From Neisseria sp. Ec49-e6-T10 (GTDB lineage: Bacteria > Pseudomonadota > Gammaproteobacteria > Burkholderiales > Neisseriaceae), in the NCBI RefSeq assembly GCF_051132615.1, contig NZ_CP152375.1, forward strand, positions 1,278,859 through 1,342,858: 64,000 bases of DNA, read 5' to 3'. Shown here one piece after another: positions 12,695 to 60,950 of this stretch; the first letter of the stretch is position 1, and every line of letters starts with the position of its first letter. Under the pieces are notes generated by a model. It worked only from the letters and a program-made list of their open reading frames with translations, did not search any database and was not told the origin of the DNA. The translations under genes were made by a program, and so were the position numbers.

Positions 12695-14356
12695 TTAACT
12701 TTCTTTATGATGGGCAGGATGCGGATTTGCCTTCATTTTACGGTTAATCAACCATTGTTGTGTAATGGATAAAATATTATTCACAACCCAATACAACACC
12801 AAACCAGCAGGGAAGAAGAAGAACATAACCGAGAACATAATAGGCATAATCTTCATCATTTTTGCTTGTAATGGGTCAGGTGGCGGTGGATTCAAAAAAG
12901 TTTGAATAAACATGGTCACTGCCATCAAAATAGGCAATACATAAAATGGATCAGGACGAGCCAAATCATGAATCCACAAAACCCAAGGTGCTTGGCGTAA
13001 TTCCACCGATGCAAATAAAGCCCAGTACAAACCAATAAACACGGGAATTTGTAACACAATAGGCAAACAACCGCCTAATGGATTGATTTTTTCCTTTTTG
13101 TATAAAGCCATCATTTCTTGCTGTAGCTTCATTTTGTCGTCGCCACATTGCTCTTTTAACAATTGCAATCTAGGAGCAACAGCACGCATTTTCGCCATAG
13201 AACGATATGAGGCAGCCGTTAATGGATACAACACCAATTTAACAATAACGGTTAATAAAACAATTGCCCAGCCCCAGTTTTGTACCCAAGCATGCAACTT
13301 ATTCAATAACCAGAACAATGGTGTGGCAAACAAATACACTTTGCCATAATCTTTGGTTAGCTCCAGCTTATCTGCTACTTGAGTCACAATTTTATAGTCA
13401 GCAGGACCAGCATAAAGCGACATATTAAAGGTTTCTGATTTTTCAGGAGCAATGGCAGGTAATTGCACACGAACGCCTGAAGAATATAGACCATCTTTAC
13501 GTTTCTTGATTTCAAATTGACACGCATCTTTACCACAAACAGTTGGTTGCCCTTTGGGTTCCAACAACCATGTTGCAATAAAGTAATGTTGAATCATGCC
13601 TATCCAGCCAGTATTGGCACGGCGCACATAATCAACCGAATCAATTCCTTTACTAAAATCTTTATCTAAATCTTTAAAACTGACTTTTTCAAAAGAACCT
13701 TCTGGGGTGTACACAACTGGCCCCACATAAGTGGCAGCAAAATAACTTTCACCTTTAGGGGTTTGGTTATCACGCAACATAGAAAATACAGCACTTGGTG
13801 TCAGAGTTGCATCACTTAAATTATGCACAACATAACTTAACTCAATTTTATAACTGCCTTTGGTAAAAGTATAAATTTTATCAAGCGCAAAATTACCTTG
13901 TTTCGCAGTCAATTTAACTTGGAGTTGATCTCCTGTTAACTTATAACTATTTTGCTCTGCTACAAAAGGAATATCTTTGAATAGATATTGATTGTTTTGA
14001 TCCAACAACCCAGTTTGAGGCACATAAATATAATCATTTTTGTTACCAAACAAAGTCATGGTTTTTGATGCGTCTTCTGTTGCATCAAAATGAGTCAATG
14101 TTAAATTACGAATATCCCCACTGTCCGCATCAATCGTGCCACGAAAAACATCTGTTTCGAACTGAATTTGTTCCCCATTTTTTAAGACACTCTCGGTGAC
14201 TTTAACTGCACTTGTCTTGCCATTTGTTTGTGCACTTTGAGACTGTGTCGTCGCAGGTTTAGGCACAGGCGGTGGAAACATATAGTTCCACCCCACCATA
14301 ATGGCCAAGGAAACCACAAAAAAAGCGATAAGATTTCTTTTTTCCATAACACTCAA
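12695..14356 (-). CDS. yidC: membrane protein insertase YidC
   Basis: 553 aa; large periplasmic domain then 5 C-terminal TM helices; conserved position after yidD-rnpA-rpmH. Confidence 0.92.
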   Translation of the reverse strand: MSVMEKRNLIAFFVVSLAIMVGWNYMFPPPVPKPATTQSQSAQTNGKTSAVKVTESVLKNGEQIQFETDVFRGTIDADSGDIRNLTLTHFDATEDASKTMTLFGNKNDYIYVPQTGLLDQNNQYLFKDIPFVAEQNSYKLTGDQLQVKLTAKQGNFALDKIYTFTKGSYKIELSYVVHNLSDATLTPSAVFSMLRDNQTPKGESYFAATYVGPVVYTPEGSFEKVSFKDLDKDFSKGIDSVDYVRRANTGWIGMIQHYFIATWLLEPKGQPTVCGKDACQFEIKKRKDGLYSSGVRVQLPAIAPEKSETFNMSLYAGPADYKIVTQVADKLELTKDYGKVYLFATPLFWLLNKLHAWVQNWGWAIVLLTVIVKLVLYPLTAASYRSMAKMRAVAPRLQLLKEQCGDDKMKLQQEMMALYKKEKINPLGGCLPIVLQIPVFIGLYWALFASVELRQAPWVLWIHDLARPDPFYVLPILMAVTMFIQTFLNPPPPDPLQAKMMKIMPIMFSVMFFFFPAGLVLYWVVNNILSITQQWLINRKMKANPHPAHHKES

Positions 14357-14366
14357 CTTAATTTAA

Positions 14367-14576
14367 TCAAGGAACTGGGTCATAGCCACTGCCACCAAAC
14401 GGATGACACCGACAAAGACGTTTGACCATTAGAACACCGCCTTTTAAAGCACCGTGTTTCTTAATGGCCTCAATTGCATACTGCGAACAAGTAGGCGAAA
14501 AACGACAACTAGGCGCAAAGTATGGGCTAATACACAACTGGTAAAAGCGAATAAAATAAAGCATTATTTTGGCCAT
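14367..14576 (-). CDS. yidD: membrane protein insertion efficiency factor
   Basis: 69 aa with conserved CRF.PTCSQY and CRCHP motifs. Confidence 0.85.
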
Positions 14577-14579
14577 GCT

Positions 14580-14912
14580 TTACCTTTTCAGCAAAGAGGA
14601 TAAAGCAAGAATAGCCTCATTATGATGAGCTGCCTCAAATTTTTGCTTACTGCGGACAATATAATCAGCATGAACCAATTCATGTTTGTGACACCGAAAC
14701 CATTCACGAATGGTTCGTTTCATATAATTGCGCTCATGTGCCTTTTTTGCCACTTTTTTCGCTACTATTAACCCTAATCGAGGGTAATCTAGGTTATTTT
14801 TACCCCAGAAAACCTGAAAATAGGCATTGTTTTTGCTTCGACGAAACGCAAAAACGGATGAAAACTCATCCGCTTTTAGTAACCGATAACGTCGATCAAA
14901 ACCATTATTCAA
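14580..14912 (-). CDS. rnpA: RNase P protein component
   Basis: 110 aa basic protein, RNR-like motif KKAHERNYMKR; apparent TTG start 3 nt after the rpmH stop. Confidence 0.8.
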   Translation of the reverse strand: MNNGFDRRYRLLKADEFSSVFAFRRSKNNAYFQVFWGKNNLDYPRLGLIVAKKVAKKAHERNYMKRTIREWFRCHKHELVHADYIVRSKQKFEAAHHNEAILALSSLLKR

Positions 14913-14915
14913 GGC

Positions 14916-15050
14916 TTACACAGCCAAGCGCTTGCGGCCTTTGGCACGACGAGCAGCCAAAACAGCACGACCACCACGGGTTTTAGAGCGAACTAAAAAG
15001 CCATGAGTGCGTTTACGACGGGTAACTGAAGGTTGGTAAGTGCGTTTCAT
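14916..15050 (-). CDS. rpmH: 50S ribosomal protein L34
   Basis: Not in the ORF track (44 aa). Reverse-strand translation [44 protein letters not shown] is the canonical L34. Confidence 0.93.
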
Positions 15051-15140
15051 TTTAAATTATTCCTGATTCTCTAAGACAACATAAACTGCGCATTACACCC
15101 TGTTTATACTGATTTGTCAATGATTTTTAAGTAAATAGCC

Positions 15141-15149
15141 TGTGGATAA
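15141..15149. promoter_or_regulatory. consensus DnaA box (TGTGGATAA) in rpmH-dnaA intergenic / dnaA promoter region
   Basis: Perfect match to TTATCCACA (reverse orientation); only one perfect box seen in the 240-bp spacer. Confidence 0.6.
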
Positions 15150-15292
15150 GTAAGCAAAAATGCAGTAGAATGTATCTTTGGCGGAAAATTCGTGGGCACC
15201 AAGTTTATATCGATTCAAATATGATGTGATATAAATAGCCTGCTTATATATAATCAGCCGCCTTTTTAACCGCAGAATACCCCAAAACTTTA

Positions 15293-16720
15293 ATGAATGA
15301 TCACGTTGCAACTATGGATGTAAATAATTTCTGGTCAGCTTGTTTAGGCCAGCTTGAGGCAGATCTGTCTCCACAACAATTTAATACCTGGATTCGGACT
15401 TTAGCTGTCAGTGCTGATGACGAGAACTGGTTATTGTTGGTACCCAATCGTTTTATGTTGCAATTTATTAAAGAACGCTTTTTTGATCGCATTGATGCGA
15501 TTCGTGTTGAACTTGCCCCTACTTCACCCGAGCTTTTATTAAGGGTCAATGCACCACAAACACAAAGCAGTAAAACGGCAACAAACACAATTGCTCAAAA
15601 AAACAACAAAACCCAAGACAAGGCTGACATAAAAAAAAATCAGCCTCGGCCAACCCAAGAGCCTACATTGGGCAACTTACCTAAACGTAGCTTAGAAAAA
15701 GCACGTTTAAACCCTATTTACACATTTGATAATCTGGTGACAGGCAAAGGCAACCAACTGGCTCATGCCGCAGCATTACAAATTGCAGAAAACCCAGGTG
15801 ACAGTACCTACAATCCCATGTTTATTTATGGTTGTACAGGCCTAGGTAAAACCCATTTAATACAAGCAATTGGTAATAAAATCCATCAACTAAAACCTGA
15901 TGCGAATATTCGTTACATTCATGCTGAACGTTACGTGGCTGATATTATGAAGGCTTTTAGGGAAAAAGCTTTTGATGAATTCAAACGTTATTACCACTCT
16001 TTAGATTTATTATTGATTGACGACATCCAGTTTTTTGCAGGCAAAAACCGAACCATGGAAGAGTTTTTCTATGCGTTTAACGCTTTATTAGACAGCAAAA
16101 AACAAGTGGTCATTACCTGTGATACTTATCCTAGCCAAATTGATGGAATGGATGACCGCCTTAAGTCACGTTTTTCTTGGGGATTAACGGTTGAAATTCA
16201 ACCACCTGAATTAGAAATGCGGGTCGCCATTTTGCTGAAAAAAGCCATGGCAGAAAATGTTAAATTAGATAATGATGCGGCTTTTTTTATTGCGCAAAAT
16301 ATCCGCTCTAATGTGCGAGAACTAGAAGGCGCTTTCAAACGGGCGCTGGCAGTGAGCCGCTTTCAGTCAAAACCGATTACCTTAGAGTTAGCAAAAGAAG
16401 CTTTAAAAGATATTTTAGCTGTGGTACAAAGACAAATTACCATTGAAGGCATTCAAAAAACAGTGGCAGACTACTACCGTATTAAAGTATCTGACCTGTT
16501 AGGTAAAAAACGGACAAGAAATATCACCCGTCCGCGCCAGTTGGCAATGGCACTGGCAAAAGAATTAACCACACAAAGTTTACCAATGATTGGCAATGCT
16601 TTTGGGGGACGAGATCACACAACCGTGATGCACGCTTGCAAAACTATTGCTGATTTAAAACAAACCGATCCAAATATTGCACAGGATTTTGACACTTTGG
16701 TGTCTATCCTAAGAGATTAA
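15293..16720 (+). CDS. dnaA: chromosomal replication initiator DnaA
   Basis: AAA+ Walker A GCTGLGKTHL, C-terminal DnaA signature ...RPRQLAMALAKELT...GGRDHTTVMHA; start may be the second Met at 15314. Confidence 0.95.
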   Translation: MNDHVATMDVNNFWSACLGQLEADLSPQQFNTWIRTLAVSADDENWLLLVPNRFMLQFIKERFFDRIDAIRVELAPTSPELLLRVNAPQTQSSKTATNTIAQKNNKTQDKADIKKNQPRPTQEPTLGNLPKRSLEKARLNPIYTFDNLVTGKGNQLAHAAALQIAENPGDSTYNPMFIYGCTGLGKTHLIQAIGNKIHQLKPDANIRYIHAERYVADIMKAFREKAFDEFKRYYHSLDLLLIDDIQFFAGKNRTMEEFFYAFNALLDSKKQVVITCDTYPSQIDGMDDRLKSRFSWGLTVEIQPPELEMRVAILLKKAMAENVKLDNDAAFFIAQNIRSNVRELEGAFKRALAVSRFQSKPITLELAKEALKDILAVVQRQITIEGIQKTVADYYRIKVSDLLGKKRTRNITRPRQLAMALAKELTTQSLPMIGNAFGGRDHTTVMHACKTIADLKQTDPNIAQDFDTLVSILRD

Positions 16721-16749
16721 CTGGCTAAAAATTAAGAGGGAAACCTGTT

Positions 16750-17853
16750 ATGCTGATTTTACAAACTGAAAAAGACTCACTACTTAAGCCTTTAAAAACG
16801 GTAACAGGCATTATTGAACGCCGCCATACCTTACCGATATTATCCAATGTCTTAATTGAAAACAAAGGTGGTAAAACCTCTTTACTCAGTACCGACTTAG
16901 AAATTCAGATTCACACAACAGGGTTTGAATCGCAAGCGGAAGATTTTCGTTTGACCACAAATGCAAAAAAATTACAGGATATTTTGCAGGCTTTACCAGA
17001 CAGCTCTTTAGTCTCTCTTGATTTAGCCCAAGATCGTGTGACTTTAAAAGCAGGAAAAAGCCGCTTTAACTTACAAACATTACCAGCAGATGATTTTCCT
17101 TTATTGGCAGTAGATGACGAAGTATCAGCTTGTTTTAGCATCAACCAAAACGTACTCAAACAAATGCTCTCACAAGTGCAATACAGTATGGCGGTGCAAG
17201 ACATCCGTTATTACTTAAATGGTTTGCTGATGCAAGTTGAAGGCAATCGCTTAAACCTTGTGGCAACCGATGGTCATCGTTTGGCTTTATCCAGTGCCAC
17301 AATTGATGCCGACTTACCCAAAGCAGAAGTCATTTTGCCACGAAAAACCGTGTTGGAATTGTCTAAGTTACTGAGCCAACCAGATGAAGACATCACCATT
17401 GAGTTACTGAACAATCAGGTACGTTTTCGTTGTGGTGAAAGTGTGATTGTCAGCAAAATTGTGGATGGCAAATTCCCAGACTACAAACGTGTGATCCCAT
17501 TAGACAATGACAAAATTTTCTTGGTTGGTCGCACTCAGTTATTAAGCGCATTAGAGCGTGCCGCTATTTTAGCCAATGAAAAATTCCGTGGCGTACGTTT
17601 ACTGATTAAACCTGGTATTTTAAGCATTGTGTGTAGCAACAATGACCAAGAAGAAGCCCAAGAAGAAATCGAAATTGCCTATCAAGGTGAACCATTGGAA
17701 ATGAGCTTTAATATTGCATACCTAATGGATGTCTTGCGTAATGTCCCTGTGGACAACTTACAACTGGCTTTTGGCGATGCGAATCGCTCAAGTCTGTTCA
17801 CCATCCCTGAGTATGCAGACTTCAAATACATCGTGATGCCAATGCGCATTTAA
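16750..17853 (+). CDS. dnaN: DNA polymerase III beta sliding clamp
   Basis: 367 aa, three-domain clamp, ends ...MPMRI; AGAGGGA RBS. Confidence 0.93.
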   Translation: MLILQTEKDSLLKPLKTVTGIIERRHTLPILSNVLIENKGGKTSLLSTDLEIQIHTTGFESQAEDFRLTTNAKKLQDILQALPDSSLVSLDLAQDRVTLKAGKSRFNLQTLPADDFPLLAVDDEVSACFSINQNVLKQMLSQVQYSMAVQDIRYYLNGLLMQVEGNRLNLVATDGHRLALSSATIDADLPKAEVILPRKTVLELSKLLSQPDEDITIELLNNQVRFRCGESVIVSKIVDGKFPDYKRVIPLDNDKIFLVGRTQLLSALERAAILANEKFRGVRLLIKPGILSIVCSNNDQEEAQEEIEIAYQGEPLEMSFNIAYLMDVLRNVPVDNLQLAFGDANRSSLFTIPEYADFKYIVMPMRI

Positions 17854-17857
17854 CGAT

Positions 17858-17898
17858 AAGGGTTGGGCACCCCCAACCCTTTACTATTGTTTTTTTTG
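17858..17898 (+). terminator. GC-rich hairpin plus T8 between dnaN and gyrB
   Basis: AAGGGTTGGGcacCCCAACCCTT 10-bp stem, then tactattg then TTTTTTTT. Confidence 0.55.
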
Positions 17899-17910
17899 GA
17901 ATCGAGATAA

Positions 17911-20307
<2,397 letters not shown>

Positions 20308-20907: not shown

Positions 20908-23064
20908 TTATGGTTGCTTTGTTGTATCTGGGAAAATAGTTGCTAGCTTTCCATCAGTTTTTATTATTCCAATTCGAACGCCTCTATATTCTCCAAAAAC
21001 AGCCTCACCATCTTTTATATCTGCAAAGTTTGATTGGTTAGCGATATGTTGTCCTGCATTTTCGATATCCTTATTCGTCCAATTTTCAGGGAACCAAGAT
21101 TGATTATTTCCTGTTCTTTTCGCCTTAATTTTATGGTCTGGTACATTTCCAATCCTAACACCATTAGGATAAGTTTTTTCGATATTTACTTCCAACCCAT
21201 TTTCTTTGAGAAAATCAATGTTAGATTGACCATGACCTCCTCCTTTCATTTTAGATATTTCTCCTGTGGAAGGGTTGACAGTAAAATCTCCAATATCTGC
21301 ATGTTTTAAACTTTGCTCTGGAATTTCCACTTTAGCAATGACCCCACTAGCTTTTTCAACTGCACCTAATTTTCTTTCTAAGTTAATGGTATTGTTTGTA
21401 TCATGTAAGGCATCAGCAGCCTTAGATAAATTCTTAGCATTCTTAGTCATACCCAAAGGAGCGACAGCAGCTAATACCTCAAAGCCAATTTTGCCATCCA
21501 TTCTACCCGATTCATCATACTTTCCTGCCACTTTAAGCTGTTGTACCTGTTCCTGACGATCTGTCAACATCCCATTAACACCTTTTATGAATTCATCAGG
21601 ATGCGCTGAATAATACATCGTCTGACCTGTAGCAGAACCAGCTAAAAAGCCTACTGAATTGAACAGACTATTCATCCGTTCATTATTCCGATGAATACTT
21701 TCTCTGGCTGCTGTTTGGTCATATAAGCCACCTAACAGCGAATAACCTACTGTATTGAGGATATCCTTAGACAATAAATTAGCATCATTTACCATCTCTT
21801 TTAAGCCACTGAGCATAGACTCATTAGCCCCTTTACTATAGGCTGCTTGTTCTACTTCTGTTAACGGTTTACCCTCATAATTGGTCATTTTCATGATAGG
21901 CATCACGCTTGGTTGTGCTGTAAGAGGACGAATATTAGATAAAGGCACATTTTGGGCGGTATTGTTTACCCACTGTAATGCCTCTACTGTATTGATTGAT
22001 TTATCTGAACGATTAACAGCAGCCTGTAATGTTTCACTCTGACTGAATTTATGCATAGCAGCAACTGAAACACCTTTATTAATTAAACTGTGTTCTTGAT
22101 AACGAGATAATTGTTCTTTAATAACACTTTCTAGTTCTTGTTTACTTAAACCATTTGCCATATTGGGATTATTGGCTACTTGATTATTGATATTTTGAAA
22201 GAGTTGAGTTATTTGGGTTTGTTGCTGTAAGTTAGGATTTCGTTCTCTTTGTTCTTCTAATGCTTGAGCTCTAGCCAGATCAATATGTTCATTGGCTAGG
22301 CTTTGACCTGTAACAATTTGACGTCCTGCTTGTTCATTTTTGGCTTGTTGCTCTTCTGTATATTGGCTACGGTCATAGGTATATTCTTTATTGGGTTGAA
22401 TATTAGGAATAATGTGTTGATTGCCATCTTTGAGCTTGATGTCTTTTATCTGTCCTGATCGATACAAAACCCCTAAAGCTTCATATGGATGCTCTGAGTC
22501 TAATTTTTGCGCCAAACTCCAGCCAGTATCGCCTTTTTGGGCAATGATTTTATGTTCAGTATTTTCTGGTTCTAATTGTGTTTCAACAGGTTTTTTTATG
22601 CTGTCTTCTAATGGCTCTCCAGCTATAATTTTTGGTGTGGATAGATTGAACTGTTCATTCTGTTTCCCTAAATTAAGCTGAATTTCTTCTTGATTAATCT
22701 GTAACTGATTAATTTTAGGCGGATCACCAGCATAATCATGTGTAACAAATCCTACGGCTTCTTTTAAGATGTATTGTTCTTTTGGGGTAAATTCAGATAA
22801 TTGTTTGTCTACTTGATGATTGTTCATCTGTTGAACAATCTCTTTTAATCTTCCTTTAGGTGGATAGGAACGATTAAAATGTTCACTAATCAGCTCTTGT
22901 TCTTTGTTTAGTTTCTCAGGGGCTTTTTCTGGTGCTTTAGCTTGTAATAATTCTTTATCGACACTTAACCCATGTTTTGCTAGAGTTTCTTCTACATTTA
23001 CAAAGGCATATTTATTGTTGCCTATATTAGCCATTAAACAACCTGTTTGAGGGCTGTAATACAT
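20908..23064 (-). CDS. polymorphic-toxin-like protein with nuclease-like C-terminal domain; N-terminal region Gln-rich; upstream in-frame extension interrupted by TAA
   Basis: 718 aa; the C-terminal 130 aa (GGGHGQSNIDFL...PDHKIKAKRTG...SWFPENW...QHIANQ) has conserved His/Lys in an arrangement reminiscent of RNase-type (EndoU-like) toxin tips; followed by a small gene; same frame stays open upstream to ATG 23319 except for one TAA at 23218..23220. Confidence 0.6.
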   Translation of the reverse strand: MYYSPQTGCLMANIGNNKYAFVNVEETLAKHGLSVDKELLQAKAPEKAPEKLNKEQELISEHFNRSYPPKGRLKEIVQQMNNHQVDKQLSEFTPKEQYILKEAVGFVTHDYAGDPPKINQLQINQEEIQLNLGKQNEQFNLSTPKIIAGEPLEDSIKKPVETQLEPENTEHKIIAQKGDTGWSLAQKLDSEHPYEALGVLYRSGQIKDIKLKDGNQHIIPNIQPNKEYTYDRSQYTEEQQAKNEQAGRQIVTGQSLANEHIDLARAQALEEQRERNPNLQQQTQITQLFQNINNQVANNPNMANGLSKQELESVIKEQLSRYQEHSLINKGVSVAAMHKFSQSETLQAAVNRSDKSINTVEALQWVNNTAQNVPLSNIRPLTAQPSVMPIMKMTNYEGKPLTEVEQAAYSKGANESMLSGLKEMVNDANLLSKDILNTVGYSLLGGLYDQTAARESIHRNNERMNSLFNSVGFLAGSATGQTMYYSAHPDEFIKGVNGMLTDRQEQVQQLKVAGKYDESGRMDGKIGFEVLAAVAPLGMTKNAKNLSKAADALHDTNNTINLERKLGAVEKASGVIAKVEIPEQSLKHADIGDFTVNPSTGEISKMKGGGHGQSNIDFLKENGLEVNIEKTYPNGVRIGNVPDHKIKAKRTGNNQSWFPENWTNKDIENAGQHIANQSNFADIKDGEAVFGEYRGVRIGIIKTDGKLATIFPDTTKQP

Positions 23065-28889: not shown

Positions 28890-30518
28890 TCAAGTTGAGT
28901 GTTGTTTGATTTTTTCCCAACTTAAATCGAATTTGGCCAAATATTTACGTAACCGATCTGAATCGTTACTCACTTGTTTGTGTGCTCTGGAGATAGCAAA
29001 TAACCGCCGCCCAGCTTCTGCCAAGGTAGGCGATTGCATGCACACATCTATCACCTGTTTAAGCTGACACTGATCAAATAAATCAAGTTGATCAGGTATT
29101 AATGCAGAGTATTGGGCTTTTATAGCGCCCTCTTCTTGCCAGTTTTGACTTAAACGCTCAATTTCTGTTTCAACCAATTCATTGGTAATATTATTGTGTT
29201 GTGCCAAAGTCGCCATTCTGGTGACAGATGCGGTTAATTCTCTAAAATTGCCTTGCCATAAGGCTTTATCCGAAGTGGCAAAGCGAAGATAGTGCGTTTT
29301 GGCCTCTTTATTAAAACGAGGCATTTTTTTATACTCTCGAGCAAAACGAGCCAGTTCATAATCTAGGTTAGGCTCTATGTCTTCTTTTCTTTGTGCCAAA
29401 CTTGGCAAAGCATAATGCCATAAGTTAATACGGGCAAATAAGTCTTCCCTAAAGAGCCCTTTACGCACTAAATTTTTTAGGCTTTTATGGGTACCTGCAA
29501 TAATTTGGAAGTCACTTTTAACTTCTTTATCGGCACCAAATGGATAAAATTTCTTCTCTTCTATGGCTTTAAGCAGCATGGCCTGTTCATCTAAACCAAG
29601 CTCGCCAATTTCATCTAAAAACAACATGCCTTTATCGGCTGACTTTAATAAGCCAGATCGCTCTTTTTCTGCTCCTGTAAAAGCCCCTTTTACATGCCCA
29701 AACAAAGTGGACATGGCACTGTCCCCACGCAAAGTAGCGCAATTGACTTCAACAAAAGGGCCATGTATTTGATGTTGTTGCACCTTTAATTCATAAATTC
29801 GTTTGGCTAAAAAGGATTTACCCGAACCTGTTGGCCCTTCTAATAAAATAGGTGCACACGAACGCTTAGCAACAATTTCTAATTCATCAATCAGTTGGTT
29901 GAATGTTCTATTTTTGGTGGCGATACCTGATTTTAAATAATCGGTTGCTTGAGCAGAGTACTGCTCAAAACGAGTGAAGATCTGATCATATCGATTTAGG
30001 TTTAAATCAATTTGGGTAATTTGCCCTAATGGGCATCGACTCATTATGTCCTCTTGTGTCTGTTCTTCACTAGACGCTTGGATCGCTTTGTTCGGGGGAG
30101 AAGCTTGTAATAATTTAGCGGGAAAAAAACGAGCCTCTGCCAATAAAAACCAGCAAATTTGTACCACATGAGTCCCTGTGGTGATGTGAATAGTGTATTC
30201 TTCTTGCTCTAAATTAAATGGGTAACGCTTAGCCAAATCGAATAAAACGGTATAAACCTGTTCAAAGTCCCAAGGGTCATCAATGGTCACTTCAATTAAA
30301 TTGATTTCAACATTAGGGGCAATATCTTTTATGTCTTCAACAACTCGGCGAGCCAATGCGGTGTCTTTACGGTGATAAAGCAATTCTAAACGATCAGCTT
30401 GTCCATGTTCTACTCGACAAATATCAATGGTTGGCCGCCAACGTAACCAGCGTCGTTTGCCTTTGCCTGTTTGATCTAAATTACTGCCTAAAAAACCAAA
30501 TATTACTTTTTTCATCAT
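28890..30518 (-). CDS. rtcR: sigma-54-dependent transcriptional regulator RtcR (CARF-like N-domain, AAA+ domain, HTH)
   Basis: 542 aa, collinear with E. coli RtcR (MMKKVIFGFLGSNLD..., GPTGSGKSFLAKRI, GAFTGA, ESELFGH-like region, C-terminal ...RLRKYLAKFDLSWEKI). Confidence 0.92.
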   Translation of the reverse strand: MMKKVIFGFLGSNLDQTGKGKRRWLRWRPTIDICRVEHGQADRLELLYHRKDTALARRVVEDIKDIAPNVEINLIEVTIDDPWDFEQVYTVLFDLAKRYPFNLEQEEYTIHITTGTHVVQICWFLLAEARFFPAKLLQASPPNKAIQASSEEQTQEDIMSRCPLGQITQIDLNLNRYDQIFTRFEQYSAQATDYLKSGIATKNRTFNQLIDELEIVAKRSCAPILLEGPTGSGKSFLAKRIYELKVQQHQIHGPFVEVNCATLRGDSAMSTLFGHVKGAFTGAEKERSGLLKSADKGMLFLDEIGELGLDEQAMLLKAIEEKKFYPFGADKEVKSDFQIIAGTHKSLKNLVRKGLFREDLFARINLWHYALPSLAQRKEDIEPNLDYELARFAREYKKMPRFNKEAKTHYLRFATSDKALWQGNFRELTASVTRMATLAQHNNITNELVETEIERLSQNWQEEGAIKAQYSALIPDQLDLFDQCQLKQVIDVCMQSPTLAEAGRRLFAISRAHKQVSNDSDRLRKYLAKFDLSWEKIKQHST

Positions 30519-30638: not shown

Positions 30639-30654
30639 TGGCACAGTCATTGCA
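30639..30654 (+). promoter_or_regulatory. sigma-54 (-24/-12) promoter TGGCAC-N5-TTGCA directed toward the tRNA-like RNA / SPFH / rtcB operon
   Basis: Exact TGGCACagtcaTTGCA 120 bp upstream of (and divergent from) the rtcR start; AT-rich spacer between, suitable for IHF/UAS. Confidence 0.8.
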
Positions 30655-30785
30655 TATATACCCATGCCAACAAAAAAACAGTTTGGTTCAGTATACAAAG
30701 CTGACCGATGCATGGCGAATAGCTTAAGGTTATTTTCAAAATGTATGTCCTGTTGATTTGAAGGTATGCATCGCAAGATAAAAAT

Positions 30786-30833
30786 GGTAAAGCTCTGGTA
30801 TATACCAGTTTGCTTAGGTTCGAATCCTAATTT
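30786..30833 (+). ncRNA. partial tRNA-like module (hairpin plus T-arm-like TTAGG-TTCGAAT-CCTAA) immediately 5' of the full cloverleaf
   Basis: CTGGTATATACCAG palindrome followed by a T-arm consensus; no pairing acceptor stem found. Confidence 0.4.
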
Positions 30834-30909
30834 ATTTTGAATAGCTCAATAGGTAGAGCAGTTGATTATTAATCAACCTGTCATAGGTTCGACTCCTATT
30901 TCAAAAACC
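30834..30909 (+). tRNA. tRNA-shaped RNA element (76 nt perfect cloverleaf, anticodon AUU, encoded CCA); probably a Y-RNA/YrlA-like tRNA mimic in the rtc leader rather than a decoding tRNA
   Basis: Acceptor TTTTGAA/TTCAAAA (6 AU + 1 GC pairs), D arm GCTC-AATAGGTA-GAGC (A14, G18G19, A21), anticodon arm GTTGA-TTATTAA-TCAAC, 5-nt variable loop, T arm ATAGG-TTCGACT-CCTAT (T54 T55 C56 A58 C61), discriminator A, CCA; sits about 180 nt downstream of the sigma-54 promoter. Confidence 0.7.
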
Positions 30910-31208
30910 AAAATTGCCCTGTCTCGGCAAATGCTTAGGGTGCATTTAAAAGTAGTAAAAAAGCTGTACTACAGACTGACGCCGTGTTGTGGTAGGGAAC
31001 AAATGCCACAACAAGCACAAGAATACCGGTTATAGGTAACTGGATGATTGGCAAGCGAACAGATTGATATAGGTTCTTCTATATCGTGACATGAAGAAAA
31101 AATACGGTCATGAACAACTTATATCAGCTTTTGTTTCCCTTTTATTTCGTTTTATCACCCGTCATTTTTGTGTGGCTGAGGTCAATATTTTAAAAGGATG
31201 AATATAAA

Positions 31209-32792
31209 ATGTTACAAACAATCAAAGTAAAAAAAGATGAATTAGCGATCATTTATAAAGATGGTGAATTTAATGAAATTTTAAAAGCGGGGAAACATTA
31301 TTTATTTGGTTTGGGTACAAATAAAACAAACCAAATCATTAAACTTGACCAAAGCAATGTGGACACAAAATTAGCCGATTACTTAAGAAGTTTTCGCCAA
31401 GATATGATTAAAGAACACTGTATTGATGTGCAATTAAGCAAAAGCGAAATTGGTTTACGTTTTATAGACGAACAATTGGTTGAAATATTAATGCCTGAGA
31501 CCAAAACACTTTTTTGGCAAAGCCACATCAACCAAACGTTTGAAACCATTATGTTGGAAGATGATTATCGTATTCCTGAAGATATTGCCCAAAAATTAGT
31601 ACGAGCAAAAACAACTAAAGCAAAAATTATTGGTTTGGATCGTTTGATTATTGCACATATGACCAATGAACAAATCGGCTTATTGTTTATTGACAAACAA
31701 TTGGCTGCAATTGTGCCTTCTGGACAAAGTGTTGCTTATTGTGGCTATGTACATGAGGTGTTATTAAGCCAATATGCATTAGCAGAAAGCTTGATTCATG
31801 AAAAATTGGCAGAAGCAATCAGACAAACTTTACCTGAGCAATTGGATACCTATTGTTTGGAAATTGAAGTAGGTGCCAATGAAGCAGGGTTACGTTATGA
31901 AGATGATTTATTGGTCGAAATTTTAGCCCCTGGTTCTAAACGCTTGTATTGGAAAAACATGCGCAAACAACATTTGGTCAGCATTAATTTAAATAATGGC
32001 TATACTTTACCAAACACCATTGTGCAACAATTGGTTCAACCTCATTTGCGTCAACAAGGTGTGGTTGGGTATGAAAGTGTGTTGATTGCTCAAGTGCCTG
32101 CTTATTTTGTCGGTGTATTAAATGTTGATGGCAAAATACAGGGCTTATTGGATGCAGGTATCAGTGCTTACTGGCGTTTTAACCGTGAAGTCACTGTTGA
32201 GTTGGTGGATACCCGCTTACAAGCCATGGAGGTCACTGGGCAAGAAATATTAACCAAAGACAAAGTAAATTTGCGTGTTAATTTGGTTGCCAACTGGCGT
32301 TATCAAGATGTGTTATTGGCTTTTGAACGCTTATCGCGCCCAATGGAGCACTTATATAGAGAGTTACAATTGGGTTTACGTGAAGCCATTGGTACACGTA
32401 CTTTAGATGAGTTGTTGGAAAACAAAAACATCATTGATAAAGTGGTTTCGGCTCACGTGGCTGAGAAAATGCAGCAATATGGTATTGAAACAGCTTCTTT
32501 GGGGGTAAAAGATATTATTTTACCTGGAGACATGAAAGACATTTTGGCTCAAGTAGTTGAAGCGGAAAAATCAGCCCAAGCCAATGTGATTCGTCGTCGA
32601 GAAGAAACCGCGGCAACCCGCTCTTTATTAAACACAGCCAAAGTGATGGAAAACAACCCTGTTGCTTTACGTTTAAAAGAGATGGAAACATTAGAGCGTA
32701 TTGCTGAACGAATCGACAAAATTTCGGTAGTCGGTGGGTTAGACCAAGTATTACACGGTTTGGTGAATATTAGAAACATTGAAGCAAAATAA
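31209..32792 (+). CDS. SPFH/band-7 (stomatin/prohibitin-like) domain protein with long N-terminal region
   Basis: 527 aa; the C-terminal 200 aa match the SPFH fold (…GVKDIILPGDMKDILAQVVEAEKSAQANVIRRREETAATRSL…); AAGGA RBS; 39 nt upstream of rtcB. Confidence 0.75.
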   Translation: MLQTIKVKKDELAIIYKDGEFNEILKAGKHYLFGLGTNKTNQIIKLDQSNVDTKLADYLRSFRQDMIKEHCIDVQLSKSEIGLRFIDEQLVEILMPETKTLFWQSHINQTFETIMLEDDYRIPEDIAQKLVRAKTTKAKIIGLDRLIIAHMTNEQIGLLFIDKQLAAIVPSGQSVAYCGYVHEVLLSQYALAESLIHEKLAEAIRQTLPEQLDTYCLEIEVGANEAGLRYEDDLLVEILAPGSKRLYWKNMRKQHLVSINLNNGYTLPNTIVQQLVQPHLRQQGVVGYESVLIAQVPAYFVGVLNVDGKIQGLLDAGISAYWRFNREVTVELVDTRLQAMEVTGQEILTKDKVNLRVNLVANWRYQDVLLAFERLSRPMEHLYRELQLGLREAIGTRTLDELLENKNIIDKVVSAHVAEKMQQYGIETASLGVKDIILPGDMKDILAQVVEAEKSAQANVIRRREETAATRSLLNTAKVMENNPVALRLKEMETLERIAERIDKISVVGGLDQVLHGLVNIRNIEAK

Positions 32793-32831
32793 ACAAACCG
32801 CCTGTTTTTTAGGCGGTTTCAAGGATAAAAA

Positions 32832-34055
32832 ATGAGTAAATATCAAGTATTAAAAAATGAACAATGCAACCCCATTAAAATGTGGACAGAAGGCGTACCT
32901 GTTGAAGAAGATGCAAAACAACAATTATTGAACACGGCCTCTATGCCTTTTATATTTAGCCATATTGCGGTCATGCCTGATGTGCATTTAGGTAAGGGTT
33001 CAACCATTGGCAGTGTGATCCCGACTAAAAATGCCATTATTCCTGCAGCAGTTGGTGTGGATATTGGTTGTGGCATGATGGCTGTACGAACATCATTAAC
33101 AGCAAATGATTTACCTGATCATTTGTATGCCATACGCAGTGCCATTGAACAAGCGGTGCCTCATGGAAGAACCGTCAGCCGCAATACAAAACGAGACAAA
33201 GGCTCTTGGCAACAGCCTCCTCAGTTGATCGATCAATACTGGGCACAATTATTGCCTGGGTTTGAAAAATTAACCCAAAAACACCCTAGATTTAAAAATA
33301 CCAACCACTATAAACATTTAGGTACTTTGGGTACAGGCAATCATTTTATTGAACTGTGTTTAGATGAAAACGATCAAGTATGGGTGATGTTGCATAGTGG
33401 CTCACGCGGTGTAGGCAATGCCATTGGTTCTTATTTTATTGAGTTGGCGCAAAAAGACATGGAAGGCCATCTTGGCAACTTACCTGATAAAAATTTAGCG
33501 TATTTCCCAGAAGGAAGCGAACACTTTGATGACTATTTTGAGGCGGTCGGTTGGGCACAAGAATATGCCCGTTTAAATCGAGAAGCCATGATGAATCATG
33601 TGTTACTGGCGATAAAATCGGTGATTACCAAGCCATTTAAAACGGATTTAGAGGCGGTTAATTGCCATCATAACTATGTGCAAAAAGAAACTCATTTTTC
33701 AGAAGAAATTCTGGTCACACGTAAAGGTGCTGTTTCTGCCCAAAAGGGGCAATTGGGGATTATTCCTGGTTCTATGGGGGCAAAAAGTTATATTGTGCGT
33801 GGTTTGGGTAACGAGCAAAGTTTTTGTTCTTGTTCTCATGGCGCAGGCCGTGTAATGAGTCGAACAGCCGCAAAAAAACGCTTTACAGTGGCCGATCAAA
33901 TTGAAGCAACAGCTCATGTAGAGTGCCGTAAAGATGCTGCGGTGATTGATGAAATCCCCATGGCTTATAAAGACATTGATGCGGTTATGGCAGCACAAGA
34001 TGATTTGGTTGAAATTGTGCATCAGTTAAGACAGGTTGTGTGTGTTAAAGGGTAA
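32832..34055 (+). CDS. rtcB: RNA-splicing ligase RtcB (3'-phosphate/5'-hydroxyl RNA ligase)
   Basis: 407 aa, collinear with RtcB (…HSGSRGVGN…, metal-binding His/Cys, C-terminal CSHGAGR nucleotidyl-His region). Confidence 0.92.
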   Translation: MSKYQVLKNEQCNPIKMWTEGVPVEEDAKQQLLNTASMPFIFSHIAVMPDVHLGKGSTIGSVIPTKNAIIPAAVGVDIGCGMMAVRTSLTANDLPDHLYAIRSAIEQAVPHGRTVSRNTKRDKGSWQQPPQLIDQYWAQLLPGFEKLTQKHPRFKNTNHYKHLGTLGTGNHFIELCLDENDQVWVMLHSGSRGVGNAIGSYFIELAQKDMEGHLGNLPDKNLAYFPEGSEHFDDYFEAVGWAQEYARLNREAMMNHVLLAIKSVITKPFKTDLEAVNCHHNYVQKETHFSEEILVTRKGAVSAQKGQLGIIPGSMGAKSYIVRGLGNEQSFCSCSHGAGRVMSRTAAKKRFTVADQIEATAHVECRKDAAVIDEIPMAYKDIDAVMAAQDDLVEIVHQLRQVVCVKG

Positions 34056-47805: not shown

Positions 47806-47910
47806 GAAGGTGGCGAGCCTAACCCTCGGCACTAACAAACTTAACTTGGGCTGCTTGCTTCCGCACCTGACCCGTTGAGCTAAACTGCTATGCGAGGAGA
47901 CCCGCCATTG
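47806..47910 (-). ncRNA. ffs: signal recognition particle 4.5S RNA
   Basis: Reverse strand contains GGTCAGGTGCGGAAGCAAGCAGCC, the SRP RNA domain IV consensus; terminal helix UGGCGGGUCU/AGGCUCGCCA; GC-rich island in AT-rich spacer. Confidence 0.85.
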
Positions 47911-52288: not shown

Positions 52289-54004
52289 TCACCCCATCAG
52301 ATTAGGCGCATACTGATAAAGATTATCCCCACCCAATAATCCAATAGGATCCTGATTACTAAACCGTCCACTATCCGCATCATAATAGCGCATTAAATTA
52401 TAATGCAATCCCGTCTCAACATCATAATACTGATTTTGAAACCTAAACGGTTGATGACCTTGATGTAGGTTATGCTCTTCGGCTATTTTTCCCCAAGTTT
52501 GGTATTTCGCATACCAAATCAACTCCCCTTTTTCATCGGTTAACTCTTTGGGTAAGCCTACTTGATCTGTATGTAGGTAATTAATAACTATATTTTCACC
52601 AAGACTAATAAATGCTAAGGGAACAAAATTTTCTAATGATCTATCAGTACCTGCTACAGAAATCTCACTACCATAAATATATACAACGCTTCTTTCATAA
52701 CTTCTCTCTTGCAGTAACCGTGCGCCATCCCAAACAAATTCAGTTTTGTTTTCTAGGGTGTTCTTGCTGATTTGTTCTTTTCTGATTCTGCGTCCAAATA
52801 CATCGTAAATGTATTGCCAGTTTTCTTTTGTGCCTTTTTTATCAGTAATAGTGGCTTGTTGTAACTGTTGATTCAGGTTATAACTTAGCTCTAAGGTTCT
52901 ATCCTTCGCTTCTTTCCTCACCATATTACCCAGCTCATCATAATGGTAGGCGATCCCTTGATATGTTTGCACTCGGTTGGCGTGTTTGTCTATGGGTGAG
53001 ACTCCTGGGTCATCTTTTAATGGTGACCATGTCGGGTCACTGAGCATTTGCTCATAATAAGCTTTGTCTTTTATGGGTTGTTTGGGCTTAGGCTGGCTGT
53101 TTTCTTGCGCATCAATAATATTATGCGCTGGGTCAAAGGCAAATAGCTCTTGCCCTGCTTGGGTAATACGCCCTATTTTGTCATAAACGTATTGTAGACT
53201 GCTGCCTCTATTGTCTGACATTCGGGTTAAGTTACCCGCTTTATCGTATTGGTAGCTACGTTTAACGGGGCCACTGGCAATCAGCAGCTTATTTTTGTTT
53301 TTAAGGTCTAAATCTTGTTCAAATGAGGCAACTTGTTGTTTGATGCGCCCCATTGGGTCTAAATCGTAGAAGCTGGTTAGTTTACCTTGGCTGCGGCTGA
53401 TTTCTCGATGTAAGTCGTCCCGCTCAAAATCGCTGATCACTTTGCCGTCTATATTGATTTGGTGTAAATGGCCGCTACCGTAATAGAGGTAATTGATGGT
53501 TTGCCCTGTGGGCAATACGGTGGCAATACGGTTGCCTAACTCATCGTAAAAGTATTGCACTGTTTTGGCGGCGTTGGGGTCTAAAAAGGTTTCTTCTACG
53601 AGGGTTTGTGGGTCTAAATCGTAAGTGCGCTCACAAATCAATTGCCCTAATGGGTCATAATCCAGTTGTATCAGGCTATGTTCGTTTTTGGCTTGAATCA
53701 GTTGATTCAGTTCATTGTATTGGAATGTACTGTGTAGCTCCTGCGCACTTTGGCTGTCATGGGCATTTTTGGCGGTCAGTTGCCCTAAAGCATCACGCTC
53801 GTAGGTTTTTTGGATCAAGGCATTCAATTGGGTTAAATCGACATTGGGGTGATTGACTTGCCCGTAGAGTTTTTCTTGTACCAGTTCTGAGGCTAAGTTG
53901 TAATGGTAGCCGGTGGCTTTGCCATCAAAGCCAATTTCGCCAATTAGGTTATCCAGTATATCGTATCGTAGTGATATTGTTCGGTACTGCTGTAATAACA
54001 ACAA
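52289..54004 (-). CDS. orphan Rhs/YD-repeat fragment (no N-terminus, toxin tip deleted: ends …QYAPNLMG*)
   Basis: 571 aa of YD repeats; about 340 aa identical to residues of the main rhs gene; stops inside the PxxxxDPxGL core so no toxin domain. Confidence 0.8.
   Translation of the reverse strand: MLLLQQYRTISLRYDILDNLIGEIGFDGKATGYHYNLASELVQEKLYGQVNHPNVDLTQLNALIQKTYERDALGQLTAKNAHDSQSAQELHSTFQYNELNQLIQAKNEHSLIQLDYDPLGQLICERTYDLDPQTLVEETFLDPNAAKTVQYFYDELGNRIATVLPTGQTINYLYYGSGHLHQINIDGKVISDFERDDLHREISRSQGKLTSFYDLDPMGRIKQQVASFEQDLDLKNKNKLLIASGPVKRSYQYDKAGNLTRMSDNRGSSLQYVYDKIGRITQAGQELFAFDPAHNIIDAQENSQPKPKQPIKDKAYYEQMLSDPTWSPLKDDPGVSPIDKHANRVQTYQGIAYHYDELGNMVRKEAKDRTLELSYNLNQQLQQATITDKKGTKENWQYIYDVFGRRIRKEQISKNTLENKTEFVWDGARLLQERSYERSVVYIYGSEISVAGTDRSLENFVPLAFISLGENIVINYLHTDQVGLPKELTDEKGELIWYAKYQTWGKIAEEHNLHQGHQPFRFQNQYYDVETGLHYNLMRYYDADSGRFSNQDPIGLLGGDNLYQYAPNLMG
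52289..54004. repeat. Rhs core repeat copy A (paralogue of about 57150..58870; exactly identical block about 53120..53830 = 57981..58691)
   Basis: Identical antisense ORFs 53608..53856 and 58469..58717 prove at least 249 nt identity; by-eye alignment extends perfect identity to about 710 bp with 90-95% flanks. Confidence 0.8.
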
Positions 54005-54078
54005 AATCTCTCCGAACGTTAATAGACCAACTTTAAACCATAGCTTTCCTCAATTATCAACAATAATAGTAATCGAAT

Positions 54079-54660
54079 TTATTCGATTACTATTTTAAAA
54101 TTAGAATTATTTCTACAATATTTTAAAAAACTAATACTACTTTCTCTATCATTATTAAGAGCAATACATCCAAACCCTGTATCATCATGAGGATACACTG
54201 CAATATTAAGCTCAGGATTAATATAAAAACAAACCTGCCCGATAATACCAGAATGACTCATCATGAGTTTAGAAAGCATAATAAAATGATCATAATTAAA
54301 ACTAAAATCTAATGAACTAATTGGTAAAGAGCTATCACCATATAAATAGCTCTCAAAACTATCACTCATTGTTTTTAAGATTCCATTTTTTATAAAAAAT
54401 AAAAATGCATCATTATATTCTGCGAGAATTTCAGGATCACTCTCCGTTTTATCATCAAAAGATAATGCTGTCATGATAAAGAAATTATTATACTTACCAA
54501 AATAATCATCAAACATACTTACAGATTCTTGTACAATTTCAGAAGAATAACCATTTAACCGTTCAAAATATCCCACCCATCCTTTAGATGTACTGAATCC
54601 ATCGAAATTAAAATCCTCGAGTGAAACTTTTTTATCTATCAATTTTAATAATTTTTCCAT
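54079..54660 (-). CDS. immunity protein cognate to orphan Rhs toxin tip 2
   Basis: 193 aa, overlaps the 3' end of the orphan rhs fragment by 29 nt, as is typical for rhs toxin/immunity pairs. Confidence 0.6.
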   Translation of the reverse strand: MEKLLKLIDKKVSLEDFNFDGFSTSKGWVGYFERLNGYSSEIVQESVSMFDDYFGKYNNFFIMTALSFDDKTESDPEILAEYNDAFLFFIKNGILKTMSDSFESYLYGDSSLPISSLDFSFNYDHFIMLSKLMMSHSGIIGQVCFYINPELNIAVYPHDDTGFGCIALNNDRESSISFLKYCRNNSNFKIVIE

Positions 54661-55866
54661 CGCTTATCCCTACAGTTATCTTTTTGCTTTTATTAGGTGC
54701 AGACTTACCTATACCAACTTTCCATTCACCTGCTTTATCAGAGTGTGTAGTATGACTTTTACTCCATATTTCATTTGTGTGTTTATTTTTCCAATTTCCT
54801 TTATTTGCACGAGTAAAATCAGAAGGATGGGAAGTTGGTGTTCTCACAACATCGCCGACATTAGCATTATTAACTTTCTTTTTAGGATCGTCTAAATAAC
54901 ATTTAAACCCCCAAGGATCAATCCACCCCATCGGATTAGGCGCATACTGATAAAGGTTCGTCCCACCCAACAACCCAATCGGATCCTGATTGCTAAACCG
55001 CCCACTGTCCGCATCATAGTAACGCATTAAGTTATAATGCAGCCCTGTCTCAGCATCGTAATACTGGTTCTGGAACCTAAACGGTTGGTGACCTTGGTGT
55101 AGGTTATGCTCCTCGCTTACTTTACCCCAGGTCTGATATTTTGCATACCAAATCAACTCACCTTTTTCGTCGGTAAGCTCTTTAGGCAAACCGACTTGGT
55201 CTGTATGCAAGAAGTTTATTTGTGGCTCTTCTTGCTCTGGCTCTAATACGATTTGCGCTAAGGGTTCAAATCCTTCCTCTCGATAAATATAAGTAAAGGT
55301 TCGTTTATCGGTGCTTTCTTGTAATAACCGTGCACCATCCCATACAAATTCGGTTTTCTTTTCTATGACGTTATTGCTGATTTGTTCTTTTCTGATCCTG
55401 CGTCCAAAGACATCATAGGTATATTGCCAGCTTTCTTGTTTCTCTATTTTGCTATTGTGCGTTATATTCGCTGTAATTAATTGCTGGTTAAGGTTATAAC
55501 TCAGCTCTAAGGTCTTATCCTCCGCCTCTTTCCTCACCATATTACCCAGCTCATCATAATGGTAAGTAATCCCTTGATAGCTTTGCACTCGGTTGGCGTG
55601 TTTGTCTATGGGTGAGACTTCGGGGTCGTCTTTTAACGGTGACCATGTCGGGTCACTGAGCATTTGCTCATAATAAGCTTTGTCTTTTATGGGTTGTTTG
55701 GGCTTAGGTTGGCTGTTTTCTTGCGCATCAATAATATTATGCGCTGGGTCAAAGGCAAAGGTTTCTTGCCCTGCTTGGGTAATGCGTCCTATTTTGTCGT
55801 AAACGTAGCGTAAATTGTTGCCTCTGATGATATATCTATTATTTTTAAAACCCCATCTTTCACACC
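54632..55866 (-). CDS. orphan Rhs C-terminal fragment with alternative toxin tip (DPWGF-KCYLDDPKKK…); 5'-truncated, no start codon (first Met at 55663)
   Basis: Frame open from 55866; homologous to the main rhs 3' region (…RYVYDKIGRITQAGQ… …DPIGLLGGTNLYQYAPNPMGWIDPWGF) then a unique 100-aa C-terminus. Confidence 0.75.
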
Positions 55867-55896
55867 TCTAAACTTGGTCAGTATGCAGGTAATTTA

Positions 55897-60899: not shown

Positions 60900-60950
60900 T
60901 TTTGCTCTCCTTCACACCTTATCTAAAGCCAAACAGGTTACAACCATTAT

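Follow-up and report, generated by a model that had tools for sequence, protein, structure and literature searches.

A cloverleaf RNA, in all likelihood a non-decoding b7a-type tRNA mimic, in the conserved leader of an RtcR-controlled Band-7/rtcB operon

It is an open question what the bacterial RNA ligase RtcB repairs, and for what reason tRNA-shaped RNAs belong to RNA-repair operons, as in the pairs YrlA/Ro60 and b7a-tRNA (band-7-associated tRNA)/Band-7. The locus described here is from Neisseria sp. Ec49-e6-T10 and lies in a 64,000-nt stretch of contig NZ_CP152375.1 (positions 1,278,859 to 1,342,858; this whole stretch is called the window, and coordinates refer to it unless another locus is named). 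A tRNA-like element (30835..30910, + strand) lies there in the leader of an operon that encodes a Band-7 protein and RtcB. The element is a bona fide, perfectly folded cloverleaf, and with high confidence we assign it to a class predicted in 2016, the non-decoding mimics of the b7a type, of which it is an unusually tRNA-perfect member with its 7-bp acceptor stem, A73, encoded CCA, and canonical loop. Comparison with related loci showed selection on the elbow, the core, and the inner acceptor stem but not on the anticodon, modules arranged in tandem, and a flanking leader that is itself conserved and structured. The hypotheses raised are excision by RNase P, binding to the Band-7 protein, and assistance of RtcB by a ribonucleoprotein (RNP).

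ARAGORN called only one tRNA across the window, at 30835..30910 (+), and named it tRNA-Asn with the anticodon ATT; the initial annotation had recognized the same 76-nt cloverleaf but had placed it one base low, at 30834..30909. The Rfam tRNA covariance model (RF00005), a check which that annotation had itself proposed, gave 68.3 bits, where the gathering score is 29 (E = 9e-13 for the 64-kb window). When the 76-mer was folded in isolation with RNAfold, the minimum free energy (MFE) structure and the centroid were both the cloverleaf. The layout, read directly from the sequence, is UUUUGAA-UA-GCUC-AAUAGGUA-GAGC-A-GUUGA-UUAUUAA-UCAAC-CUGUC-AUAGG-UUCGACU-CCUAU-UUCAAAA-A-CCA. All four stems are free of mismatches, namely the acceptor stem UUUUGAA/UUCAAAA with its six A-U pairs and one G-C pair, the D stem GCUC/GAGC, the anticodon stem GUUGA/UCAAC, and the T stem AUAGG/CCUAU; both the perfect pairing and the six A-U pairs had been described correctly. 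The core nucleotides U8, A14, G18, G19, A21, G46, G53-C61, U54, U55, C56, and A58 are present, and the 3' end consists of the discriminator A73 and the encoded CCA. The further claim that every tertiary position is conserved held for the core positions listed, but not for the Levitt position, which is A15/C48 instead of G15:C48 or A15:U48 and is the sole departure from the textbook core. The anticodon-type loop, UUAUUAA with the 'anticodon' AUU, has the canonical 7 nt, including U33 and A37.

Such a molecule could be a genuine stress-induced decoding tRNA, tRNA-Asn with the anticodon AUU or another, which supplements or recodes translation when RtcR is active. This explanation would fit the perfect cloverleaf with its acceptor stem of 7 bp, the A73 and encoded CCA at the 3' end, and the canonical loop of 7 nt that contains U33 and A37; moreover, related loci without rtcR have canonical tRNA arrays in the same operon, and Anabaena has stress-induced tRNA operons. 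On the other side, the body of the element is nearest to E. coli tRNA-Thr and tRNA-Lys rather than to tRNA-Asn, and the Levitt position A15/C48 is also unfavorable. The identity set of E. coli asparaginyl-tRNA synthetase (AsnRS) is G34, U35, U36, and G73, whereas the element has A34 and A73. To our knowledge, A34 anticodons in bacteria are essentially limited to tRNA-Arg(ACG), and we know of no bacterial anticodon AUU.

For the comparison we used 81 sources, the window and 80 rtcR/Band-7/rtcB-type loci of beta- and gammaproteobacteria, which were obtained via homologues of the Band-7 protein from one-genome-per-species contigs. The layout of divergent rtcR, leader, Band-7 gene, and rtcB was found in most of the 80 loci, and in most of them ARAGORN placed a tRNA-like element 250-400 nt upstream of the Band-7 gene. 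We aligned 43 tRNA-like elements and built the covariance model R1 from that alignment. The Rfam gathering threshold was not the basis of the locus count, because on 15 loci it missed b7a-tRNAs that were seen by ARAGORN and R1 (L001 and L004 among them). R1 detected a tRNA-like element in 62 of the 81 sources, with 64-91 bits and always at the same relative position, about 270-370 nt 5' of the Band-7 gene. The window element scored 81.9 bits, its own sequence being in the training alignment, and relatives outside the training set scored 67.9-82.4 bits. A sigma-54 promoter was located 131-211 nt upstream of the tRNA-like element in 52 of the 62 sources by a relaxed pattern that allows the -12 variants TAGCA, TCGCT, and TGGCA, the pattern TGGC-N8-TGC being too strict. 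The element is inherited at a fixed position in rtcR/Band-7/rtcB operons across the beta- and gammaproteobacteria.

In the alignment of 43 elements, mean column identity was 74%, and the D arm, T arm, and variable loop were near-invariant. All four helices covaried: 93.5% of the cells were paired, double changes occurred in 15 of the 21 pairs, and the covariation score was 0.441, against 0.173 for shuffles (none of 500 reached 0.441) and 0.06-0.12 for slid controls. The anticodon arm was kept only as a hairpin, which ended in a tetraloop (GAAA, GCAA, GCGA, UUCG, or CUUG) in 28 of the 62 sources and elsewhere in a loop of any sequence; loops of 4-6 nt were frequent. Anticodons called by ARAGORN varied widely across the loci, and many were non-canonical 'anticodons' of 2 or 4 nt. 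Even the nearest relatives all differ from the window (AUU), with CAU in the metagenomic locus L082, CAG in L084, UCG in Entomomonas (L086), AGG in Gilliamella, and CCA in Snodgrassella. Because the anticodon loop is not conserved, we read the element as a non-decoding mimic, and selection maintains the body of the tRNA, meaning its D and T arms, its variable loop, and the inner five acceptor pairs, and not decoding. The initial annotation had also favored a tRNA mimic over a housekeeping tRNA-Asn; this part stands, on the comparative evidence from 62 of 81 sources; by themselves, neither the anticodon AUU nor the many A-U pairs of the acceptor stem are decisive.

A decoding role is accordingly very improbable, and an elongator tRNA-Asn in particular was rejected, since the anticodon is not conserved in the orthologues and A34 and A73 depart from the AsnRS identity set. 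The decoy and suppressor tRNAs that had been offered as alternatives gained no support, and the suppressor reading was dropped. It should be mentioned that gene finders call such elements tRNAs with exotic anticodons, as ARAGORN did with Asn-ATT in the window and with Pro-AGG, Gly-ACC, and a 'Stop' tRNA in relatives; these calls should not be taken for decoding or suppressor tRNAs.

The acceptor stem varies more than the rest of the body. Of the 43 sequences, 26 and 18, respectively, do not pair at its outer two positions. A stem of the full 7 bp is kept by the window, Gilliamella, Snodgrassella, Entomomonas, and L084; among these, the window and the two Gilliamella loci also retain ACCA. The pair most often seen at its position is U3-A70, U4-A69 is nearly invariant, and the acceptor sequence UUUUGAA is common to the window, Gilliamella, Snodgrassella, and Entomomonas. 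Since these features recur in relatives, the A-U-rich stem is a trait of the clade and the family and not a sign of decay. This bears on the idea that the element is a decaying, functionless tRNA pseudogene caught between rtcR and the operon, for which the odd anticodon, the A-U-rich acceptor stem, and the degenerate copy adjoining it could be cited. The same position in 62 of 81 sources from two proteobacterial classes, the compensatory substitutions, and the near-invariant loops all contradict it; we find the pseudogene scarcely credible, and covariation and synteny effectively refute it.

The class to which we assign the element goes back to work of Burroughs and Aravind, whose 2016 abstract reportedly counts SPFH/Band-7 modules among the cognate partners and, with them, 'a novel tRNA-like molecule'. 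The window element adjoins a Band-7/SPFH gene linked to rtcB, folds into a cloverleaf like that of authentic tRNAs, and has homologues at the same position elsewhere. The b7a-tRNA of RtcB RNA-repair operons is credited to Burroughs & Aravind 2016 by Wang et al. 2018 (bioRxiv 10.1101/312249); our definition is second-hand, from the summary given in that preprint, and nothing in the window element was found to contradict it. According to Wang et al., b7a-tRNA is apparently interchangeable with YrlA/Rsr; b7a-tRNA is sometimes found beside Rsr and YrlA sometimes beside Band-7, and the b7a-tRNA/Band-7 pair was proposed as the counterpart of the Ro60/Y RNA pair. A full-text literature search on 'b7a-tRNA' returned only this preprint, and a paper on RNA processing in P. 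aeruginosa did not mention the locus. In the literature reached, which did not include Burroughs & Aravind 2016 itself, we met no description of the tandem modules, the conserved flanking domains, or the vault-like partner that are described below.

The mimic had been likened in the initial annotation to YrlA, and membership of that family was not upheld. The YrlA model (RF02553) gave 27.4 bits at 30783..30888 against a threshold of 69, the element is unpermuted, and no rsr/TROVE gene was found among the open reading frames of at least 300 aa in the window; b7a-tRNA, linked to a Band-7 protein, is instead the sister class. The sub-threshold match arose because the T arm of an upstream module (module 1) and the D arm of the main tRNA-like element stand in the YrlA order. 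In the locus L012, a sub-threshold YrlA match at 3631..3681 had the same order as 30783..30888, with the T arm of module 1, the acceptor strands, and the D arm of module 2. The likeness is still considerable. YrlA, too, mimics a tRNA and shares its transcript with rtcB, the rsr-yrlBA-rtcBA operons that encode it being controlled by RtcR/sigma-54 (Chen et al., 2014, PMC4201824), its D- and T-arm sequences in the Rfam alignment are near-identical to those of the window element (GUAGCUCA..GGUAGAGC, GGUUCGA), and both RNAs have been proposed as cofactors of RNA repair or decay. In contrast to the unpermuted window element with its covarying 5-bp anticodon-type stem, YrlA carries a permuted tRNA-like domain (T arm, acceptor hairpin, D arm) on a Ro60-binding stem, without an anticodon arm. 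The window element also lacks the rsr neighbor, its operon consisting of Band-7 and then rtcB only. Speculatively, YrlA could have been derived from tandem tRNA-likes by truncation, copy 1 supplying the T arm and copy 2 the D arm, with the fused acceptor strands in between.

The genes around the element agree with its earlier placement in an rtc leader. The rtcR gene (28890..30518, - strand), which encodes a sigma-54 enhancer-binding activator with an N-terminal RtcR/CARF domain (Pfam RtcR, 4.4e-69; Sigma54_activat, 3.7e-50), is divergent from the operon. A sigma-54 promoter, TGGCAC-N5-TTGCA (TGGCACagtcaTTGCA), was read at 30639..30654 on the + strand, and transcription would start near 30665. 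The tRNA-like element is about 170 nt downstream of this promoter, inside a leader of about 550 nt, and ends 298 nt before the gene for a 527-aa Band-7/SPFH (slipin) protein (31209..32792, +; Pfam Band_7), the proposed partner of the mimic. The gene for the RtcB 3'-P/5'-OH RNA ligase (32832..34055, +; Pfam RtcB, 7e-134) is next and last, with no rtcA after it, and is followed by an AT-rich spacer and an autotransporter gene. We found neither a + strand sigma-70-like promoter nor a terminator flanking the tRNA-like element. All 23 open reading frames (ORFs) of at least 300 aa in the window were scanned with Pfam, and none matched TROVE (rsr/Ro60) or an RtcA family at the default cutoff or E<=1e-5. 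The 39 nt that separate the stop codon of the Band-7 gene from the start codon of rtcB are largely taken up by a 9-bp G+C-rich hairpin, AAACCGCCU-GUUUUUU-AGGCGGUUU (32795..32819), which has just a short U run on the + strand and, judged by its sequence, could be a partial terminator or a signal for processing or stability.

The b7a-tRNA is one module of this long, conserved, structured leader of about 550 nt. Immediately 5' of it we confirmed the partial module with a T arm and a hairpin that had been noticed earlier. It is a degenerate tRNA-like copy with a short acceptor-like stem (30775..30834, +; R1 match at 30776..30830, 16.9 bits), in which the T arm UUAGG-UUCGAAU-CCUAA lies at 30814..30830 and the hairpin CUGGU-AUAU-ACCAG at 30795..30808. 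In 45 of the 62 sources, the main tRNA-like element is preceded by a perfect T arm, whose end lies 4-15 nt upstream of it. In Pseudomonas the upstream module is a complete second tRNA-like (43-66 bits), and the two copies abut, while Gilliamella and Snodgrassella have lost the upstream module. L082 (772..991), in which the Band-7 protein is 66% identical and both rtcR and rtcB are present, has three tandem tRNA-likes of 48, 57, and 68 bits; therefore, the copy number of the module spans one to three between lineages.

Farther upstream, a 5' leader domain (30663..30768, +) was predicted to fold into nested outer stems around a hairpin A, followed by a stem B (AUGCAU/AUGUAU) with its own hairpin (MFE -28.7 kcal/mol, z -2.4). 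Its counterpart in 27 GC-rich loci has a near-invariant CCGGUGC...GYAUGCCGCC motif and double changes at 16 of the 22 predicted pairs. Downstream of the cloverleaf, the two hairpins reported earlier do exist, although at 30914..30930 and 30985..31013 and not at 30911..30928 and 30975..31003, and there is a third at 30953..30973 (all +). The first, UUGCC-CUGUCUC-GGCAA, begins 3 nt past the CCA and is the counterpart by position of a CUGYC...GRCAG hairpin in other loci; it corresponds to the first helix that RNAalifold gave for the 3' domain, with 4 pairs, every one of which shows double changes. The hairpins GUAGUA/UACUAC (30953..30973), which holds a conserved AGUAGUA motif, and UGUUGUGG/CCACAACA (30985..31013) come from the centroid structure. 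Across the loci an AGUAGUA / GCAGUACCCGCCGG block is conserved in the 3' domain. A further block, UUUCCCUUUUAUUUCGUUUUAUCACCCGUC (31134..31163, +), about 45 nt 5' of the Band-7 start codon, is near-identical in Gilliamella and Snodgrassella, and GC-rich loci have a YCCCCGC block at the matching relative position. RNAalifold gave a weak consensus for the 3' domain (-5.2 kcal/mol, 14 pairs), and we take as established there no more than the first hairpin, together with the blocks of conserved sequence. The MFE fold of the whole leader (z -3.37) mixed the modules and did not reproduce the cloverleaf. The 5' and 3' flanking domains matched no family of Rfam 15 in the leaders scanned (window, 15 loci, and L012). 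Matches to Plastid-ycf2, CRISPR-DR21, RAGATH-35, and STnc280 in the window and L012 leaders were discarded as chance hits or reverse-strand echoes of the tRNA.

Conserved structure flanks the element in the leader on its 5' and its 3' side, which would suit a purely cis-acting role without any RNA product that acts in trans. In that role the cloverleaf would recruit RNase P or tRNA enzymes, or provide a stable fold, for the processing, stability, or translation of the Band-7/rtcB mRNA. The 5-bp acceptor stem without CCA and the hairpin immediately 3' of it in most lineages agree with this, as does the lack of a terminator between the element and the genes. RNase P-processed tRNA-likes that define RNA ends are known, for example MALAT1/mascRNA, and the cutting of a module of the mascRNA type would both free a small RNA and set the ends of the flanking RNA. 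With mascRNA/MALAT1 and with bacterial tRNA-mRNA co-transcripts (the tufB operon) the element shares a tRNA-shaped module within a longer transcript, an analogy of mechanism only. Yet the conservation of the D arm, T arm, and variable loop far exceeds the needs of a processing signal, the modules are present in one to three copies, and the element varies along with the kind of partner protein, Band-7 or Ro60 (bioRxiv 10.1101/312249). We consider an exclusive cis role distinctly unlikely.

The AlphaFold2 model of the Band-7 protein (mean pLDDT 82.5) consists of four beta-rich repeats of about 70 residues each (residues 1-290), an SPFH domain, and a helix of about 65 residues. Foldseek against the Protein Data Bank (PDB) matched the model to stomatin (E = 2.6e-13) and to the major vault protein (MVP; E = 5e-12, in alignments of about 600-690 columns). 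SPFH proteins typically assemble into large rings or cages, as in the solved structures of stomatin, HflK/C, prohibitin, and flotillin among the PDB matches. When the sequence was read by eye, without a predictor, no transmembrane segment was noticed. As modeled, the protein is vault-protein-like: in it as in MVP, beta repeats make up the N-terminal part, and an SPFH-like 'shoulder' and a long helix come after them. Like the vault protein, the Band-7 gene goes with a small structured noncoding RNA (ncRNA); a TROVE protein (Ro60) is the alternative partner of such RNAs in bacteria, and the TROVE protein TEP1 is found in vaults. The similarity to MVP is limited to fold and architecture, with 11-14% identity, and concerns a predicted model; vault RNAs, moreover, are not tRNA-shaped. 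In a tblastn search of a phage genome collection, the Band-7 protein had no match, so that collection gave no evidence of carriage by phages.

Our best overall explanation, reasonably probable as a whole, is built on the non-decoding structural tRNA mimic, of which we are highly confident, in an RtcR-activated leader. How the mimic would act is a more tentative matter, and the following RNP-cofactor mechanism falls a little short of an even chance. RtcR would activate the sigma-54 promoter, and only then would the leader with the mimic be transcribed ahead of the Band-7 gene and rtcB. In the lineage of the window, the mimic, given its A73, its encoded CCA, and its acceptor stem of 7 bp, would be a likely substrate of RNase P and a plausible one of 3'-trimming enzymes, by analogy with YrlA, which carries tRNA modifications and in M. 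smegmatis, where its acceptor stem has 7 bp, is cut by RNase P and receives CCA. Cleavage by RNase P would free a tRNA-sized RNA of about 76 nt from the leader and would also part the 5' domain from the mRNA. The freed RNA could bind the Band-7 protein, which would be cytoplasmic, oligomerizing, and vault-protein-like, as YrlA binds Ro60. The resulting RNP may help RtcB to repair tRNA or rRNA that has been cleaved, or direct that repair, as a scaffold, a substrate-shaped adaptor, or a protective cofactor.

Several points weigh against this account. In most lineages the acceptor stem has just 5 bp and there is no CCA, so that excision as a tRNA-sized RNA may be limited to a few clades, and the element may do its work as part of the leader. 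In Enterobacterales, Xenorhabdus, and Providencia, only a T arm goes with the retained Band-7 gene; therefore, the full tRNA shape is dispensable to the system. The canonical 7-nt loop with U33 and A37 makes decoding in Neisseria sp. Ec49-e6-T10 itself compatible with the sequence, and the R1 score of the window element came from a model trained on an alignment that contained it. As of 2018, b7a-tRNA was 'not validated experimentally' (Wang et al., bioRxiv 10.1101/312249).

The canonical loop is also relevant to a different role, in which the mimic is a sentinel and amplifier. Anticodon nucleases would cleave it, and its cyclic-phosphate fragments or nicked form would bind the CARF domain of RtcR and sustain induction; alternatively, it would serve as a decoy for the nuclease. 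[quoted passage not shown] Besides the 7-nt loop of the window element, the loop sequences differ among close relatives, which could reflect an arms race, and an EndoU-family toxin gene lies 8 kb away. However, about half of the orthologues end the arm in GNRA or UUCG tetraloops, which are poor mimics of an anticodon loop, Salmonella YrlA escapes cleavage by the inducing nuclease, and the elbow and core, not the loop, are most conserved. Nor can the element be the primary sensor, since its synthesis has to await induction. A sentinel or decoy role thus seems quite improbable to us.

The non-decoding mimic that we prefer might also be part of something larger. The whole leader of about 550 nt could be a single multi-domain ncRNA, induced by RtcR/sigma-54 and composed of the covarying 5' multi-helix domain, one to three tRNA-shaped modules in tandem, and the conserved 3' domain, which forms with the Band-7 protein a vault-like RNP that houses or directs RtcB, and the tandem tRNA-likes would then be the evolutionary intermediate that led to the circularly permuted tRNA domain of YrlA. 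We regard this extended proposal as unlikely, if somewhat less so than the cis-only and sentinel roles.

Some loci of the comparative set depart from the common pattern. In place of the full tRNA-like element, either just a T arm (about 14-19 bits) or nothing recognizable of the element was seen in L007-L010, L025, L033, L037, L040, L041, L043, L046, L048, L058, L059, L063, L066, L075, and L080. These loci are from Enterobacterales, Xenorhabdus, Providencia, and P. soli and retain Band-7 and the sigma-54 promoter (the latter seen in L007 and L037); none of the six that were scanned reached the YrlA threshold of Rfam. At yjbD/lysC of E. coli NZ_CP045712.1 (L081, 3290..6705), a 375-aa slipin gene lies between the two genes and is present in 1632 of 5426 complete E. 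coli genomes. A region of about 530 nt 5' of it is unannotated and homologous to the enterobacterial leader, with the T arm only; a gene for a nucleotidyltransferase-domain protein and a convergent zeta-toxin gene lie 3' of it, and rtcR and rtcB are absent at this site.

Another group of Band-7/RtcB loci (L067, 1145..8366; L049; L070; L076; L078) lacks rtcR and has arrays of 2-6 canonical-looking tRNA genes. In L067 the tRNA genes are followed by an HNH endonuclease ORF, a b7a-tRNA, Band-7, RtcB, and an ORF resembling AAA+/HEXXH proteases, and a divergent ORF encodes an XRE/cI-like repressor. This is the gene set of the Anabaena TrcR regulon, which comprises the trn tRNA operon, rtcB, slipin, and HNH (PMC10272220).

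In the neighborhood of the Neisseria operon, about 8 kb from rtcR, a 718-aa ORF (20908..23064, -) with a C-terminal bacterial EndoU nuclease domain (Pfam, 3.1e-16) looks, from its sequence, like a polymorphic toxin and is probably the upstream toxin to which the initial annotation had referred. EndoU enzymes generate 2',3'-cyclic phosphate ends, the chemistry that RtcB repairs. In an Rhs/PAAR-like toxin cluster (52289..63674, -), two shorter Rhs fragments accompany an Rhs protein of 1350 aa that has a Tox-ART-HYD1 tip; an adjoining gene encodes a ClpB-type double-AAA+ ATPase (ClpV-like), an arrangement consistent with a type VI secretion effector locus. The bacterial small SRP RNA was found at 47809..47906 (-; 67.1 bits), and the YidC, DnaA, and GyrB genes at 12695..20307 place the window near the chromosomal replication origin.

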